Shown: in pieces, positions 7,984 to 30,340 of the stretch
Position numbering within the stretch: the first letter of the stretch is position 1
How the letters are laid out: every line of letters begins with the position of its first letter
From: a virus
Length of the DNA stretch: 64,000 nt
Reading direction: 5' to 3' (one strand)
Virus record (IMG/VR): IMGVR_UViG_3300005831_000023
The notes under the pieces: generated by a model
Databases searched by the model: none
Told to the model about the DNA's origin: nothing
Seen by the model: only the letters and a program-made list of their open reading frames with translations
Translations under genes and position numbers: made by a program

Positions 7984-8122
7984 TAGGTTAGAATCTTTAA
8001 ATTGTCCAGAGAATTTTACATTTTTGTAGTATTTTTACAGATATGTACATAAAAAAAGCAATATCAAATATATATTACTTTTTTCAACTATGTACAAACT
8101 AATATGTTTACATTAGTTATCT

Positions 8123-8380
8123 GCTTTCAATATAGCAATTATTAGCTTCAATTCTAACAAATTAGTAAAGCTTAGTATCGTTTCAATGTACAATTGTTTA
8201 ATATTTTCAACTGTTTCAATAATAGCAATTGTTGTCAACTAACCGTCAAGTAACCGTCAAGTAACCGCATGTTTTCAGCTTTCAATATACAATTGTCGTT
8301 TATGTCTGCTTGCAACATAGCAATTATTAAATCTAAATTAATATCAGTTTCAATATACAATTGTTTAAATATTTTCAACT
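8123..8380. repeat. Decayed CRISPR-repeat-like units plus an 11-nt tandem repeat flanking the array
   Basis: Six units resemble the CRISPR repeat around a CAATTG core: 8123-8152, 8180-8212, 8213-8240, 8278-8307, 8308-8335 and 8347-8380. Units 8180-8212 and 8347-8380 are nearly identical to each other, and each abuts a repeat-like unit with no spacer. AACCGTCAAGT occurs as 2 full tandem copies plus a degenerate partial third copy (AACCGCATGT) at 8241-8273. Confidence 0.55.
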
Positions 8381-8671
8381 GTTTCAACATAACAATTGTT
8401 GTTTGCAAACTAATTAAGTTGAATTCAATTTAAATTAATGGTTTGCAGTTTCAACATAACAATTGTTGTTTGCAAACCACATACTAACAAAACAAAAGTT
8501 AAAACTCGAACGTTTCAACATAACAATTGTTGTTTGCAAACGCAGAAATAGTTGGTAATGGTAGTAAAAAAACAAGGTTTCAACATAACAATTGTTGTTT
8601 GCAAACACTGCATTTTTCGATTATTAACCATCCACCATAATGTTTCAACATAACAATTGTTGTTTGCAAAC
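8381..8671 (-). CRISPR. CRISPR array: 5 identical 30-nt repeats and 4 unique spacers
   Basis: Repeat GTTTCAACATAACAATTGTTGTTTGCAAAC at 8381-8410, 8448-8477, 8512-8541, 8577-8606 and 8642-8671. Spacers at 8411-8447 (37 nt), 8478-8511 (34), 8542-8576 (35) and 8607-8641 (35). The strand call is tentative. The minus strand matches the adjacent nuclease gene, places the decayed repeats at the distal end, and gives a repeat ending in GTTGAAAC. Confidence 0.9.
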
Positions 8672-8897
8672 GCTTTTCGAAACTAGCTTTCAAAAATTAC
8701 AAAACCTCTAACTAATCATTACAACTAGCTTTTAAGATTTTGTTCCAAGTACAATTGCATTTTGCTATCCAAGTGGATAGGGTGTCTATATAGTTCTTGG
8801 AAACTCAATAGACTTAACGAGCGGAAGCCAACTACCAAGTAGAATTACGACGAATACTCGCTTTTAGCCGCCAAATCGGCTTAAGTACTATTATATA
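8672..8897 (-). ncRNA. Candidate tracrRNA / omega-RNA-like scaffold (or array leader) between the nuclease stop codon and the array
   Basis: Non-coding and visibly richer in G/C than its surroundings. Hairpins CTATCC-AAGT-GGATAG (8765-8780) and GCCG-CCAAAT-CGGC (8867-8880). ACTTAA/TTAAGT long-range pairing (8812-8817 with 8880-8885). A repeat-like segment GTTCCAAGTACAATTGCATTTTGC at 8742-8765. No T-run terminator after the nuclease gene. Confidence 0.4.
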
Positions 8898-10169
8898 TTA
8901 CTTTTTATTTTTTTTCAACTTCTTTTTTATTATTTCTTGATTATCTGGGTTGGAAATATTTTTAGCAGCATTATAATCTGCATCAAGTTTTACTCCACAA
9001 TTAACACAAACAAATTCATCTCTTTTTACTCTATTGTCTTTATCTGTATGCCCACACCCACTACACTTTTGACTAGTGTATCTTGGGTTTATAAGTTTAA
9101 CTTCAATTCCAACTTCATCAGCTTTGTATTTAATCTTTTCTTGTAAATCGAAATAGCTCCAATCTTTAAGAAATAACTTATCTTTTTTAATATTTGATAA
9201 GTCTTCCATCTGTATTATTTTACAGTTATTCTTAACTGCTAATCCTACAATATATTTAGAATATTTATGGTTAATCAAATCTTTAAAATTAGCTATTTTC
9301 TTTCTCACAACTCTTACATATTTAGACCTATGTTTATATCCTCGACCTTTTATAGCATCGCTTTTTATGCTAGATTGCAAAGACTTTAATAAAGATTCTT
9401 GTTTCTTTCTAAAGCTGTCTATTTCGCCTCCTCTTATGTGATATCTTTTTAAATTATTATTAAATGCCATATAAGCAGCATTTACTATTCCCATGTCTAT
9501 ACCCATTATATTTTTATCACTTAAAAGTAACTCTTTCTTTTCCATACAATATGTTAAATTAATGAACCATTTATTCTTACTAAAAATTATCATTGAAGCT
9601 CCGATTTTATACTCTCCAGATAGCACGCTTTCAATTATTTTCTTTTGGTAATTACCATCAACTTTAATTTCTACGCAAACATGGCAACTACCTTCGTTTC
9701 TTGCAAATAACCTTAAGTCTACATAATACTTATTTTCATTTTCAATAACTTCTATGCTCTTAGAATGTAAATCTATAATACTATTTTTATAAGATGGAAT
9801 AGACATCTCACCTTTTAAAAACTTCTTCTTACTATCATTCCATTTCTTGCAACCTCTTTGAATAGAAGTTGAAATATTAGCTTTCGATAGCATTGGGTAT
9901 TCGGTTCTGATTACTTTATCACAATACCCACTAAAAGATTTGTATCCTAATATACTTAATATATCTGGTTTACACTCATGTTTGATATAATAATCCGAAC
10001 AATAATTATTCCATTCCCAATTTAATCTAATTGTTTTGTTCAATACTTTTTGTGTTTGGTCTTGAAACTCCACAAGTTGTTTCTTAAAATCTTTGAAATC
10101 TATACCCTCAGAATCGATTATCTGAAAGCGCATCACTTTATTTATTGTATCAATTTTTATTTCGTCCAT
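8898..10169 (-). CDS. cas12f: Miniature type V effector, Cas12f/TnpB-like RuvC nuclease (423 aa)
   Basis: Split RuvC motifs appear intact: GIDMG (D225, codon 9495-9497), IQMEDL (E322, codon 9204-9206) and DADYNAAKNI (D398, codon 8976-8978). Also RYTSQ plus a CxxC..CxxC zinc ribbon (C369/C372/C388/C391). Strong SD GGAGGA lies 6 nt upstream of the ATG. The gene sits directly next to the array. Confidence 0.85.
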   Translation of the reverse strand: MDEIKIDTINKVMRFQIIDSEGIDFKDFKKQLVEFQDQTQKVLNKTIRLNWEWNNYCSDYYIKHECKPDILSILGYKSFSGYCDKVIRTEYPMLSKANISTSIQRGCKKWNDSKKKFLKGEMSIPSYKNSIIDLHSKSIEVIENENKYYVDLRLFARNEGSCHVCVEIKVDGNYQKKIIESVLSGEYKIGASMIIFSKNKWFINLTYCMEKKELLLSDKNIMGIDMGIVNAAYMAFNNNLKRYHIRGGEIDSFRKKQESLLKSLQSSIKSDAIKGRGYKHRSKYVRVVRKKIANFKDLINHKYSKYIVGLAVKNNCKIIQMEDLSNIKKDKLFLKDWSYFDLQEKIKYKADEVGIEVKLINPRYTSQKCSGCGHTDKDNRVKRDEFVCVNCGVKLDADYNAAKNISNPDNQEIIKKKLKKNKK

Positions 10170-10170
10170 C

Positions 10171-10599
10171 TCATTCCTCCAGCATATTGTATATACAAAG
10201 TATGGACATATTAGCTACTTGACTTTTATTTACACCCCATTTTTTAGCAAGGTGTATTGTCAAATCATTAACGGAATTGAGCATATTGAATGATACATGT
10301 GTTGTATCTTTATTCTTCTTTATTCTATTATATGCAGTTCTAACATCATCAATATCTTTTATTTTAAATTTCAAATCTTCAAAACTTGTTTTTTTATCAA
10401 TTAATTTATTAATTTTCAATAAATCTTCTTGACTCAAGTTTTGTAAGTTTTCTATAATATTATCTATAGAAGTTTTAATTATAATCTTCTCTTTAATATT
10501 TTCTTGAGTTTTATTTTTTTTTGGATAATTAGCAGCTTGTTCTATATCTATATCTACGCCTTCATTTTTATTCTTCTTATTCATTTTCATACCTCTCAT
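10171..10599 (-). CDS. Putative centromere-binding partition protein (ParG-like, C-terminal ribbon-helix-helix)
   Basis: Follows parA with a 23-nt overlap. The C terminus THVSFNMLNSVNDLTIHLAKKWGVNKSQVANMSILCIYNML has a strand-helix-helix pattern. Alternative starts exist at M4 and M6. Confidence 0.5.
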   Translation of the reverse strand: MRGMKMNKKNKNEGVDIDIEQAANYPKKNKTQENIKEKIIIKTSIDNIIENLQNLSQEDLLKINKLIDKKTSFEDLKFKIKDIDDVRTAYNRIKKNKDTTHVSFNMLNSVNDLTIHLAKKWGVNKSQVANMSILCIYNMLEE

Positions 10600-11356
10600 T
10601 AATTTTTTTTATAACTTCATTTGTCAATTTTGCATATTGTCTGGATATTTCTAATTTATTATCAAATAATTCTATAGGAATACTTAGTTCTTGAGATCGT
10701 ATAATATTAACAGATTCAGATAATATTGTATTAAATATTTGGTTACTATCAAAATATTCGCTCATCTTTTCAAAACATTTTTTTGTTAAAGTTGTCCTTT
10801 TATTTGCTCTAGTTAATACAGTTCCCAATATTTCCAAATCGCTATTAGTATTATTTCTAATATCGTTAACTAAATTTATAATCCTGTTAATACCTTCAAA
10901 TGAAAATATTCCCACATCTATTGGTATTATTAAGTAATCGCATGCTGATAGAACATTTAAAGTTGCTATTCCCATTGTTGGTGAACAATCAAATAAAATA
11001 AATTTATAATCATCTTCTACCTCAGATATTCTTTTTTTGATTATCAATTCTCTAGCTAAATAATTTGAAAAGTCTAGATCGATGGAAGTAAGTTCCAAAT
11101 GACTTGGTATCAAATCCAGATTATCAAACTTAGTTTTTAGTATTGCATCTTTAATTCCTATTTCATTTTTAAGAACACTGTAAATATTTCTATCTTTGTG
11201 AGATTCTTTTTTAGTATAAATTCCTTGACTTAAATTTGCTTGGCTATCCATATCTACTAATAATGTTTTATACTTTTTAGATAAATTATATCCAATATTA
11301 ATAGTACTGGTAGTTTTAGCAGTGCCTCCCTTTTGGTTAAACATAGCTATTTTCAT
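10577..11356 (-). CDS. parA: ParA-family partition ATPase (deviant Walker A)
   Basis: MKIAMFNQKGGTAKTTST (KGGxxKT), DMDSQANLS and IIPIDVG. 259 aa with no N-terminal HTH, so it is type Ib-like. Confidence 0.9.
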   Translation of the reverse strand: MKIAMFNQKGGTAKTTSTINIGYNLSKKYKTLLVDMDSQANLSQGIYTKKESHKDRNIYSVLKNEIGIKDAILKTKFDNLDLIPSHLELTSIDLDFSNYLARELIIKKRISEVEDDYKFILFDCSPTMGIATLNVLSACDYLIIPIDVGIFSFEGINRIINLVNDIRNNTNSDLEILGTVLTRANKRTTLTKKCFEKMSEYFDSNQIFNTILSESVNIIRSQELSIPIELFDNKLEISRQYAKLTNEVIKKINERYENE

Positions 11357-14498: not shown

Positions 14499-14837
14499 CT
14501 ACTTAGTTTTTGGTAATTTAAATACATTACTTTCGATTAAAGTTTTAATCAACTTATCAAATCCGTTTTTCTTACTTAAACCAAGTCTACTTGTCATTTC
14601 AAGAACTATATCAAATGCATTCTTGAATCTATCAATATTTTTATCATTCTTGTATAATTGTTCTGATAGGTTTACAGCATGTCCTACGATCGATTCTAGA
14701 GCCTTAATCTTATCCAAGGTCAAATTATACCTTGATTTATATAAGTCTTTTAAATACAAGAATAACGTGTATAGAACACATACTAACAAAACAAAAGTTA
14801 AAACTCGAACGGAATTATTCATTATTAACGCATACAT
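14499..14837 (-). CDS. Membrane-anchored hypothetical protein (single N-terminal TM), last gene of the lysis cluster
   Basis: 112 aa. N-terminal hydrophobic helix VLTFVLLVCVLYTLFLYL. Lies directly downstream of the endolysin gene. Contains the spacer 2 match. Confidence 0.7.
   Translation of the reverse strand: MYALIMNNSVRVLTFVLLVCVLYTLFLYLKDLYKSRYNLTLDKIKALESIVGHAVNLSEQLYKNDKNIDRFKNAFDIVLEMTSRLGLSKKNGFDKLIKTLIESNVFKLPKTK
14777..14810. other. Protospacer: perfect 34/34 match to CRISPR spacer 2 (8478-8511)
   Basis: CACATACTAACAAAACAAAAGTTAAAACTCGAAC is identical on the plus strand at both sites. The next base (G) also matches the first base of the following repeat. The match covers codons ~10-20 of the 112-aa gene. 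Confidence 0.95.
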
Positions 14838-28297: not shown

Positions 28298-30340
28298 TCA
28301 TAATCTATATGCATGATAGTCATATCTTGCATAAGTTATACCATTGACAGAAAATATTTCATATGATGGATAAGAACTCGTTAGTTTACCATAATATATA
28401 TTGTCTGCAACATAAGTATATACTTTATCAGCAGGAGTATCTTGGCAGAAATATCTTTTACCCATCATTACAGCATTATAACCCATATAATAATACCCAT
28501 TTCCATATACGTCACTAACTAAACTTTGCTCAGTACTAGCTATTTTAGTAGCATCATTTATACATCCCTTAACAACAAAAACTTCTTGACCATCGTGAAT
28601 TCTAGTAGCACTAAAATCTCTATATAGCGGATAAGCACTATTAATATCTGAAAATGGTAACATATACTGACCATTTAATCCATCGATAACTTTAAACTTT
28701 ACAGTATAGTTACTATTGTCAATATAGAAGAATAATTCACCCATGTAAAAAGCTTGGATTGATTCATTACTTGGAAGTCTAACAGATACATCTATGATCT
28801 TTTGTACAGCAATAGAACGTGCCATTCGAATACTAATACCATTCTTAGTTAGACTAGCGTAGTTAGTTGTTAAATTACTTGCAAGTGCATCATCGCAATA
28901 AAAATTAATTGTCCAACCTAGCAAGTCTTGAAACATTGTAGCACAAGTATTTACAACTCTAGAATTAATACTTTTTCCTGCTTCGGATGTAGTAATTCTA
29001 GCTGTTGTAATGCCATAAGAATCTGTTCCTGCACTAGTACTTAAAACAGTTTTAACACCATAAACATAATCATCATTTTTCATGCTAGAAACTACATTGA
29101 AATTATATCTATTTGAACCAGTGCCAGTAAATACTTTAATGCTTCTAGCACGTTTGAAAGATGAATCATAGTAATATAATTTAGATTTTTCACCAAGACT
29201 TATAACAGGAGGAGTAAAATTAGGATATCCGTCATTATAAGCGTTAAGATACCAACACGTTGTAAAATCCCATCCAACAAATGTTGATTGAGTTTTCATT
29301 TCAGAAGTTGTTTTAGGAGTTGCATAAAGTTCTGGAAATATACAAGTATCTGAGTTATAATAACAAGATGTCATAACAATTGGTGGATCGCTTATAGCAC
29401 CAAGAAAAGCTCCAGGCTCTTCTTCCGTTAATTCGGTTTGATTTGTATAATTAAGTACACAATAGCTATTAATATAAGTGTTATCATAATAGGTAAATGG
29501 TACAAATCCTGCTACAAAGCGAGGATTGATTGTAACTATTAGATTACAAATAGAAAAACAGTTTATAACATAAATAGCATCAAGTTCAGAAGCAAAACCG
29601 CCAGTATATCCATATTGACAAGTAATTGTTGAAACAGAACTACATTTTTCGATTCTTAACCATCCACCATAATTTACAAATCCACCAAAAGAATCTATAC
29701 CACCAAAAGTTGCTGTTGAATGACAATTTTCTATATAGTTATATTCTTCAAAATTAGCACTCCATCCTTCGCAACCTCCAATAAATCCTCCGACATTATA
29801 AGGTAATTTTGAACCAGTATTGTTAATTATAAGACTTGTAGTACAATCTTTTATATAACTAAATGTATTACTTGGATAAAACTCACCAGACAAACCTCCA
29901 ATTGTACTAGGGAAATAAACATTACAATTTGAGTTTATAGTTAAACTTGTAGTTATGTTTTCAATTTTACCAGAATAAATACCACCCGCTAATGCACCTA
30001 ATTTCAAAACTGAATCAGTCCAAGTTGCATCATTTAAATTTATTATAGCATTTTCTATATTAATATTCTTTATAGTATAAGCTGTTGTAATATCACTAAA
30101 TAGCCCCCAATACCAAGTATCAAATGGATTCATAACTAGATTAGTGATTTTAAATCCACCGCCATCATATCCTCCTGTAAATTCTCCACCAATTGGCGAC
30201 CAACTTGGGTAATCACTTAAGTCAATATCAGCTGTCTGTAAGAAAAATGATGATAAATAATTTCTAACATAGTTTAATTGTATTGAATTGCTTACAAGGT
30301 ATGGATCAAACTCCGTACCAGTACCGCCATCAAAAGACAT
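28298..30340 (-). CDS. Tail-associated protein with a GLUG-motif beta-helix-like N-terminal half
   Basis: The N terminus GTGTEFDPYLVSNSIQLNYVRNYL..ADIDLS..WSPIG..FTGGYDGGGFKITNL is typical of GLUG-motif proteins. Repeated GG(L/F)xG motifs. Confidence 0.75.
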   Translation of the reverse strand: MSFDGGTGTEFDPYLVSNSIQLNYVRNYLSSFFLQTADIDLSDYPSWSPIGGEFTGGYDGGGFKITNLVMNPFDTWYWGLFSDITTAYTIKNINIENAIINLNDATWTDSVLKLGALAGGIYSGKIENITTSLTINSNCNVYFPSTIGGLSGEFYPSNTFSYIKDCTTSLIINNTGSKLPYNVGGFIGGCEGWSANFEEYNYIENCHSTATFGGIDSFGGFVNYGGWLRIEKCSSVSTITCQYGYTGGFASELDAIYVINCFSICNLIVTINPRFVAGFVPFTYYDNTYINSYCVLNYTNQTELTEEEPGAFLGAISDPPIVMTSCYYNSDTCIFPELYATPKTTSEMKTQSTFVGWDFTTCWYLNAYNDGYPNFTPPVISLGEKSKLYYYDSSFKRARSIKVFTGTGSNRYNFNVVSSMKNDDYVYGVKTVLSTSAGTDSYGITTARITTSEAGKSINSRVVNTCATMFQDLLGWTINFYCDDALASNLTTNYASLTKNGISIRMARSIAVQKIIDVSVRLPSNESIQAFYMGELFFYIDNSNYTVKFKVIDGLNGQYMLPFSDINSAYPLYRDFSATRIHDGQEVFVVKGCINDATKIASTEQSLVSDVYGNGYYYMGYNAVMMGKRYFCQDTPADKVYTYVADNIYYGKLTSSYPSYEIFSVNGITYARYDYHAYRL
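29639..29673. other. Near-protospacer: 33/35 match to CRISPR spacer 4 (8607-8641)
   Basis: Genome ACTACATTTTTCGATTCTTAACCATCCACCATAAT versus spacer ACTGCATTTTTCGATTATTAACCATCCACCATAAT. Same orientation as the spacer 2 match. Confidence 0.9.

Follow-up and report, generated by a model that had tools for sequence, protein, structure and literature searches.

No CRISPR editors in use are smaller than the Cas12f nucleases, whose performance leans heavily on a long tracrRNA. In the Un1Cas12f1 (Cas14a1) and SpCas12f1 systems this RNA is a multi-stem molecule (~150-200 nt) that is encoded beside the effector gene and the array and is bound by a Cas12f dimer. A similar order is found in the related TnpB nucleases of IS200/IS605 elements, where the nuclease gene, a structured scaffold and the guide lie on one strand. 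The TnpB omega-RNA (also called reRNA) overlaps the 3' end of tnpB, stops at the right end of the transposon and carries a single fixed guide. The third system to be considered is AsCas12f1 from Acidibacillus sulfuroxidans (type V-F, formerly V-U3), in which cas12f, tracrRNA and array follow one another on one strand. The AsCas12f tracrRNA (169 nt) was mapped experimentally between cas12f and the array and contains an anti-repeat, and separate tracrRNA and 40-50-nt crRNAs were recovered from the AsCas12f complex (PMC8548392). [quoted passage not shown]

The region considered here is a 226-nt non-coding stretch (8672-8897) of the window, the whole 64-kb piece of viral DNA that was analysed. The sequence evidence argues, with a probability of roughly 0.85, that the tracrRNA of a type V-F CRISPR-Cas12f system of the AsCas12f kind is encoded in this region, on the genome of a phage or phage-plasmid. 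An initial reading made from the sequence only (the sequence-only reading) had offered a tracrRNA or an omega-RNA-like scaffold as candidates. The first term is supported by the Cas12f effector and a covariance-model match in the right place and on the right strand; the predicted RNA is to be read as the tracrRNA of a CRISPR system and not as a transposon omega-RNA. What is new is a divergent example of such a tracrRNA, since the need of this nuclease family for a tracrRNA and the gene-scaffold-array order are already known.

The Cas12f gene and its genome

The window belongs to a phage or phage-plasmid, with genes for ribonucleotide reductase, DNA polymerase, a DnaD-like loader, a 2441-aa tape measure protein, portal, terminase, holin, endolysin and ParA; the neighbours of the cas12f locus are ParA, a 142-aa protein, a Holliday-junction resolvase and DNA polymerase. 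Many Cas12f homologs likewise lie on IMG/VR contigs. The A+T-rich phage genome is one of the points in which the locus is unlike that of AsCas12f1.

Judged from its sequence, the product of ORF 8898-10169 is a Cas12f of the AsCas12f clade with intact catalytic residues. In phmmer searches of the PDB, residues 10-419 match 8j1j, 8j12, 7wju and 8dzj (E 1e-94 to 1e-95), and 9nzq, a 433-aa Cas12f, matches at 2e-84. The ORF also contains the Pfam domain Cas12f1-like_TNB (3.9e-23), and the effector matches the NCBIfam model guided_TnpB (6e-55). The invariant columns in an alignment of 36 homologs include D224, E321 and D397 as well as C368/C371/C387/C390. The effector is ~50% identical to AsCas12f1 over the aligned stretch and of nearly the same length (423 versus 422 aa). 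In contrast, Un1Cas12f1 and SpCas12f1 are more distant (E 1e-25 to 1e-34), their tracrRNAs have a different stem arrangement, and no sequence similarity between those tracrRNAs and this one was detected.

The nearest protein among 5.8 billion is just 52% identical to the window Cas12f, which places the latter on a distant branch of the AsCas12f clade. This protein (P0002) is encoded on locus L162, where the order is ParA, a 139-aa ORF, an AcrVA2-like gene, Cas12f, 232 nt and the start of an array at the contig end. In both genomes (L162 1774-2664 and window 10171-11356) cas12f follows directly downstream of parA (71% identical) and a small ORF (36% identical), which encodes the 139-aa protein in L162 and the 142-aa protein in the window; the AcrVA2-like gene (PF26125) between parA/small ORF and cas12f in L162 has no homolog in the window. 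A BLAST search of the locus against plasmids and phages returned just short, distant matches, all inside the nuclease gene.

A predicted tracrRNA between cas12f and the array

The region is bounded by the stop codon of ORF 8898-10169, at 8898, and by the first perfect repeat (8671-8642, minus strand), and it contains no ORF longer than 37 aa. Its G+C content is 0.42 in 8778-8889, compared to 0.27-0.30 in the surrounding window. The sequence-only reading had called it a structured region between the nuclease stop and the array, and folding bears this out: minus-strand RNA 8890-8672 folds at -59.9 kcal/mol, compared to a shuffle mean of -45.9 (z -3.6; none of 200 shuffles as good). The plus strand of the same stretch gives z 0.03, arguing that the structure is strand-specific. 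An Rfam search at permissive thresholds returned only chance matches, with E above 3.

The order of nuclease, structured RNA and array on the minus strand, also pointed out at the outset, is the standard layout of the AsCas12f clade. Its likeness to the TnpB arrangement is real, but it is a known evolutionary echo rather than a new arrangement. Unlike the TnpB omega-RNA, the predicted RNA has its own predicted promoter; its scaffold starts 8 nt past the stop codon and is followed by five repeats and four spacers. The neighbouring genes, which include no transposase, gave no sign of membership in IS200/IS605 or IS607.

The family evidence for a scaffold comes from a covariance model, R1, built from alignment A2, in which the AsCas12f tracrRNA was joined by sequences from 14 homologous loci (metagenomes and IMG/VR) and the window was left out (the AsCas12f tracrRNA and repeat sequences were those of Supplementary Table 3 of PMC8548392). 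For A2, RNAalifold predicted 25 pairs, of which 18 show compensatory changes. When R1 was run over the whole 64-kb window, on both strands and with filters off, the sole significant match was on the minus strand, at 8889-8778, with 22.9 bits and an E-value of 1.7e-4 (next best, 8.1 bits and 1.3; both E-values are rough, the model calibration having been shortened). The aligned part consists of stem 1, the base of stem 2 (GCGAG:CUCGU) and UAAG; the 3' part is skipped. The match begins 8 nt past the cas12f stop codon, a layout common to 74 homolog loci, in which the match starts between -8 and +56 nt from the stop codon (median 20).

Covariance analysis over homologous loci, put forward in the sequence-only reading as a check, came out in favour of the scaffold. 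Of 99 homolog loci, 89 contain a match to model R1, and the match is without exception on the gene strand. In an alignment of 109 hits, 92.5% of helix cells are paired (29-46% in slid controls) and 442 cells are changed on both sides (55-87 in slid controls), a count that leans towards structure because the alignment was fitted to the model. Some loci (L035/L036/L040, L070, L091) carry three or four copies of the scaffold.

Transcription of the RNA would begin at a predicted sigma-70-type promoter (8918-8890, minus strand) that has 11 of 12 consensus positions and a 17-nt spacer (Table 1). The RNA would start with AGUACUU, a sequence that can be aligned with AUACUU at the 5' end of the published AsCas12f tracrRNA, and L162 has TTGAAA-N17-TATATT at the equivalent place.

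Table 1. Positions of the cas12f gene, the array and the predicted RNA elements in the window, with the corresponding sequences of the closest relative (L162)
Feature	Positions	Strand	Description	L162
cas12f gene	8898-10169	-	423 aa, AsCas12f clade; RuvC D224/E321/D397 and CCCC zinc finger present	
-35-like hexamer TTGAAA	8918-8913	-	inside last cas12f codons; promoter scan	
-10 hexamer TATAAT	8895-8890	-	promoter scan; predicted RNA 5' end about 8886-8883	
Stem 1	8866-8881	-	AGCCG / loop AUUUGG / CGGCU; aligned to model R1 helix 1	GGCUA:UAGCU
Stem 2	8817-8861	-	2a (base) GCGAG (8861-8857):CUCGU (8821-8817), then 2b GUCG:UGGC, then CUAC:GUAG	2a UAGAA:UUCUG; 2b GACA:UGUU
UAAG linker	8813-8816	-	part of family-invariant UAAGGUA (window: UAAGUCUA); A2 columns, cmsearch alignment	
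Stem 3	8784-8813	-	3a GUCUAU:AUAGAC and 3b AGUUU:GAACU; loop CCAA inside conserved UUUCCAAG; in minimum-free-energy fold	3a GUGCAA:UUGCAU; 3b AUUUU:GCAAU, one mismatch
Stem 4	8765-8780	-	CUAUCC / ACUU / GGAUAG; without family loop ACAAAGACC	UCACUA:UAGUGA
Predicted anti-repeat GCAAAAUGCAAUUGUACUUGGAAC(A)	8741-8766	-	straight after stem 4, as in AsCas12f; best RNAduplex site	
A+U-rich 3' hairpin	8693-8741	-	AAAAUCUUAAAA:UUUUGUAAUUUU, inner CUAGUU:GAUUAG; ends in U run	perfect AAAAUUAUAAA:UUUAUAAUUUU at the aligned place
Short linker or leader to first repeat	8672-8692	-	carries second AAAGCUAGUU copy	
CRISPR array	8381-8671	-	five identical 30-nt repeats (minus reading GTTTGCAAACAACAATTGTTATGTTGAAAC), four spacers of 34-37 nt	first repeat GTTTGTATACAACAGTTGTACTTTTGAAAG, on gene strand
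Degenerate repeat-like copies	8120-8376	-	irregular spacing; array end far from tracrRNA	

The four stems of the predicted scaffold (8889-8765, minus strand) are all conserved in L162, where R1 matches at the equivalent place with 24 bits and the intergenic region can be aligned with that of the window throughout. Stem 1, whose family helix is 97% paired, has two compensatory pairs in L162. The base of stem 2 is homologous to the family-invariant CGAG:CUCG and has three. Stem 3 has three in its outer helix and one in its inner helix, and stem 4 has five. In all, the window and L162 differ at both positions of 15 pairs in stems 1-4, support that comes from one close relative. The unpaired segments AUUUGG, UAAG, UUUCCAAG, CAAUUG and CUUGGRACAAAAU are constant between the two. 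Identity is 53% in the scaffold, 63% in the gene and 77% in the repeat; the predicted anti-repeat, at 69%, is the best-conserved segment outside the repeat.

Several elements picked out in the sequence-only reading can now be assigned to this structure. The G/C-containing hairpins at 8765-8780 (CTATCC AAGT GGATAG) and 8867-8880 (GCCG CCAAAT CGGC) are present and correspond to stem 4, which covaries in L162, and to stem 1, which covaries in relatives; the minus-strand arms GCGAG (8861-8857) and CUCGU (8821-8817) are the base of stem 2, again with covariation in relatives. The long-range arms fared less well. ACTTAA (8812-8817) does have its complement TTAAGT, at 8881-8886 and thus one base away from the 8880-8885 first given for it, but the pairing is only weakly mirrored in L162 and competes with another 5' pairing.

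The scaffold resembles that of AsCas12f1 in its stem 1 hairpin, in a stem 2 closed by (C/G)CGAG:CUCG(G/U) and followed by UAAG, and in stems 3 and 4 with a predicted anti-repeat straight after stem 4. A shared motif lies at 75 nt on the minus strand (GCUCGUUAAG) and at 71 nt in the AsCas12f tracrRNA (GCUCGGUAAG). The downstream regions of homologous loci have in common a hairpin, UAAA, CGAGAAGU, a variable hairpin, ACACUCGAUAAGGUA, a hairpin, GAAA, and a hairpin with the loop ACAAAGACC. The family-invariant tertiary motifs UAAGGUA, GAAA(C/U) and the stem-4 loop ACAAAGACC are not found in the window, which has UAAGUCUA, ACCC and the loop ACUU in their places. It therefore differs from AsCas12f1, where GGUA, GAAA and the stem-4 loop form base triples; its stem 3, which holds the conserved UUUCCAAG, is also longer, and CAAUUG is followed by a conserved CUUGGRACAAAAU. 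L162 deviates at the same motifs (UAAGGUG, ACCU and the loop UAAAU), arguing that the two form a divergent subgroup. A pattern search of IMG/VR with the window-type 3' half yielded no further member, only chance matches in unrelated sequence that has no cas12f close by. Among other relatives, L164 (protein P0004) has a scaffold of the mainstream type, and L163 (P0003) has no scaffold downstream.

RNAalifold on the window and L162 proposed two other pairings. The long-range pair between GCGAG and the first repeat was rejected, CGAG:CUCG being the family-supported helix. The pairing UUCCAAG:CUUGGAA is kept only as a possible pseudoknot, since the local stem 3 has four compensatory pairs. In this form the UUUCCAAG loop region could pair with the CUUGGRAC that follows CAAUUG in a 5-bp pseudoknot, CCAAG:CUUGG; both of its sides are invariant in the window and L162, so we can only infer this pairing.

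Array orientation and spacers

The repeat of the window is 30 nt long (29 in AsCas12f1) and, read on the minus strand, begins with GUUUGC and ends with GAAAC (GAAC in AsCas12f). The sequence-only reading had suggested that a repeat-like segment with a CAATTG core could pair with the CRISPR repeat, and that co-folding should be tried in both orientations. The segment does lie at the family position of the anti-repeat, and 8766-8741 is the best RNAduplex site for the repeat whichever orientation is used. The same-strand (minus) repeat, however, pairs weakly, at -12.5 kcal/mol over ~13-17 bp, a value reached by 273 of 500 shuffled repeats. The plus-strand repeat reaches -20.3 kcal/mol, a value matched by 8 of 1000 shuffled repeats and by 4 of 979 other windows. 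Segment 8743-8757, which holds CAATTG, is 87% identical to a repeat copy and is a degenerate direct copy; in this respect the window is unlike AsCas12f1, for its repeat is nearly palindromic and its anti-repeat resembles a direct, not an inverted, repeat copy.

These energies raise the alternative that the same tracrRNA serves an array read convergently, from the plus strand, so that the crRNA repeat GUUUCAACAUAACAAUUGUUGUUUGCAAAC would pair with the anti-repeat over ~20 bp, as a direct-copy anti-repeat would allow. We regard this as rather unlikely. The repeat is 73% self-complementary, so that both orientations pair to some degree, and in the family the stronger pairing is with the same-strand repeat at 23 of 24 loci. 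The AsCas12f crRNA has the orientation of the gene strand, and the minus-strand repeat of the window starts with GUUUGCAAAC, resembling GUUUGCGAGC of AsCas12f. The degenerate repeats are found where a minus-strand reading would put the trailer, at the far array end, and the scan found no plus-strand promoter to the left of the array. Finally, an A-to-G change in the L162 repeat keeps a same-strand G-U pair and creates an A.C mismatch in the opposite-strand duplex. It is likely, on balance, that the crRNAs come from the minus strand.

The 3' end of the minus-strand repeat (GTTGAAAC) yields a TTGAAA -35-like hexamer, so that promoter-like sites recur within the array (8620-8648, 8427-8454 and 8360-8387, minus strand); these may be chance occurrences or internal crRNA promoters. 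About six degenerate copies lie to the left of the five perfect repeats, with start-to-start distances of 34-60 nt. Within this stretch, a 56-nt unit is duplicated (8180-8235 and 8347-8402, 73% identical), and an 11-nt sequence, GTCAAGTAACC, occurs three times in tandem at 8234-8267. The whole tracrRNA-plus-array module is flanked by a perfect 15-nt direct repeat, TATATATTACTTTTT (8069-8083 and 8892-8906), whose far copy lies within a second TTGAAA-containing promoter-like sequence (minus strand; 8060-8087) resembling the tracrRNA promoter. This repeat may have arisen by duplication or be a scar of recombination.

The phage's own genome contains matches to two of the four spacers, and the ends of the matches coincide exactly with the spacer ends. 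Spacer 2 (8478-8511) is identical at 34 of 34 positions to 14777-14810, inside the holin gene (ORF 14499-14837, phrog_608) beside the endolysin gene, and spacer 4 (8607-8641) at 33 of 35 to 29639-29673, in a 680-aa ORF (28298-30340). An AsCas12f-type NTTR PAM was found at neither flank of either site in either orientation; the flanks are TTCC and GTAA in the minus orientation and AGAA and CAGA in the plus orientation. No convincing external protospacer was found in phages or plasmids, and hence no PAM was obtained. Spacer 2 has a 27/30 match in Clostridium phages CS266P1-4, but this match extends into the repeat and is probably due to chance. A 20-mer of spacer 3 matches ten viral contigs, with just 24-25 of 35 positions in agreement, and a 20-mer of spacer 4 has no match in IMG/VR. 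For the holin and endolysin region, no related DNA was found in the phage collection.

From scaffold to first repeat, and the proposed working of the RNA

The anti-repeat is followed by the A+U-rich hairpin at 8741-8693, which is possibly the 3' end of the tracrRNA or a connector to the first repeat. The direct repeat AACTAGCTTT that had been pointed out at 8681-8690 and 8723-8732 is present. On the minus strand it reads AAAGCUAGUU, with one copy following the anti-repeat and the other preceding the first repeat; as it contains the quasi-palindrome AGCUAGUU, an 8-bp duplex between the copies, with two G-U pairs, would be possible. In L162 the aligned places hold a weaker pair, AAACUCAG and GAACUCGC. 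The AGC directly before the repeat is kept in L162 and at the 3' end of the AsCas12f tracrRNA.

Stretch 8672-8740, directly upstream of the first repeat, is A+U-rich and 52% conserved with L162, and the scan found no promoter there. The final ~70-95 nt (8740-8672) are probably 3' hairpin and leader rather than conserved scaffold. The scan detected no canonical terminator-like or promoter-like site in the interval that separates the anti-repeat from the first repeat, which makes it plausible that transcription of the tracrRNA runs on into the array. In many family loci (L029, L033, L047, L060, L071, L075 and others) just 11-22 nt separate the scaffold end from the first repeat, a distance into which a separate terminator or leader would hardly fit.

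Both observations would suit a natural fused guide, that is, one transcript running from scaffold through anti-repeat, 3' hairpin and first repeat to the spacer and acting in cis for at least the first spacer, in the manner of a TnpB omega-RNA or an engineered single-guide RNA, rather than as a separate RNA in trans, and so would the resemblance of the AsCas12f tracrRNA 3' end (AAUAGC) to the pre-repeat sequences of L162 (UAUAGC) and the window (AAAAGC). Such a guide is nevertheless improbable, as the AsCas12f complex gave separate tracrRNA and 40-50-nt crRNAs (PMC8548392) and, with five repeats, the remaining spacers would still require pairing in trans.

A more elaborate proposal treats the window and L162 as a remodelled phage-plasmid subfamily of guide RNAs. 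Here the CCAAG:CUUGG pseudoknot, between the stem-3 loop and the segment after the anti-repeat, would replace the base-triple module; the anti-repeat, a direct copy of the palindromic repeat, would pair best with antisense array transcripts; and spacers against the phage's own holin and a structural-block gene would serve lysis control or the exclusion of near-identical kin. Taken jointly, these steps are hardly probable. Least probable of all is that the region is a mere CRISPR leader and cas12f 3' UTR, whose hairpins are incidental or a terminator with no scaffold role: it does adjoin the first repeat, and its final ~70 nt are A+U-rich and just 52% conserved with L162, but the covariance-model match is specific in place and strand, the stems are kept in L162 through 15 pairs changed on both sides and covary across the family, an RNA would start just past the stop codon from a near-consensus promoter, and the scan detected nothing terminator-like.

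If the region is a tracrRNA gene of the AsCas12f kind, the pathway would run as follows. From the sequence evidence, transcription would begin at about 8886 on the minus strand, with the -35 box of the promoter in the last cas12f codons, and the RNA would fold into four stems (8881-8765), followed by the anti-repeat (8766-8741) and the A+U-rich 3' hairpin. By analogy with AsCas12f, a Cas12f dimer would then bind the scaffold, and the anti-repeat would pair with the repeats of an array transcript. This transcript would most likely come from the same strand, possibly by read-through, which is proposed because neither a terminator nor a separate leader promoter is evident. A host RNase would trim the duplex, again as in AsCas12f, and the tracrRNA:crRNA:Cas12f complex would cut spacer-matching DNA beside a PAM.

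Current understanding is unchanged by the predicted window tracrRNA. As a natural 423-aa ortholog whose scaffold is clearly delimited but divergent, the system allows a comparison that tells indispensable parts of the AsCas12f guide RNA from others, pointing to stem 1 and the stem-2 base with UAAG as essential and to the stem 3/4 tertiary module as replaceable. It also adds a phage-borne example, located beside a partition module, of the gene-scaffold-array order that links TnpB to Cas12.
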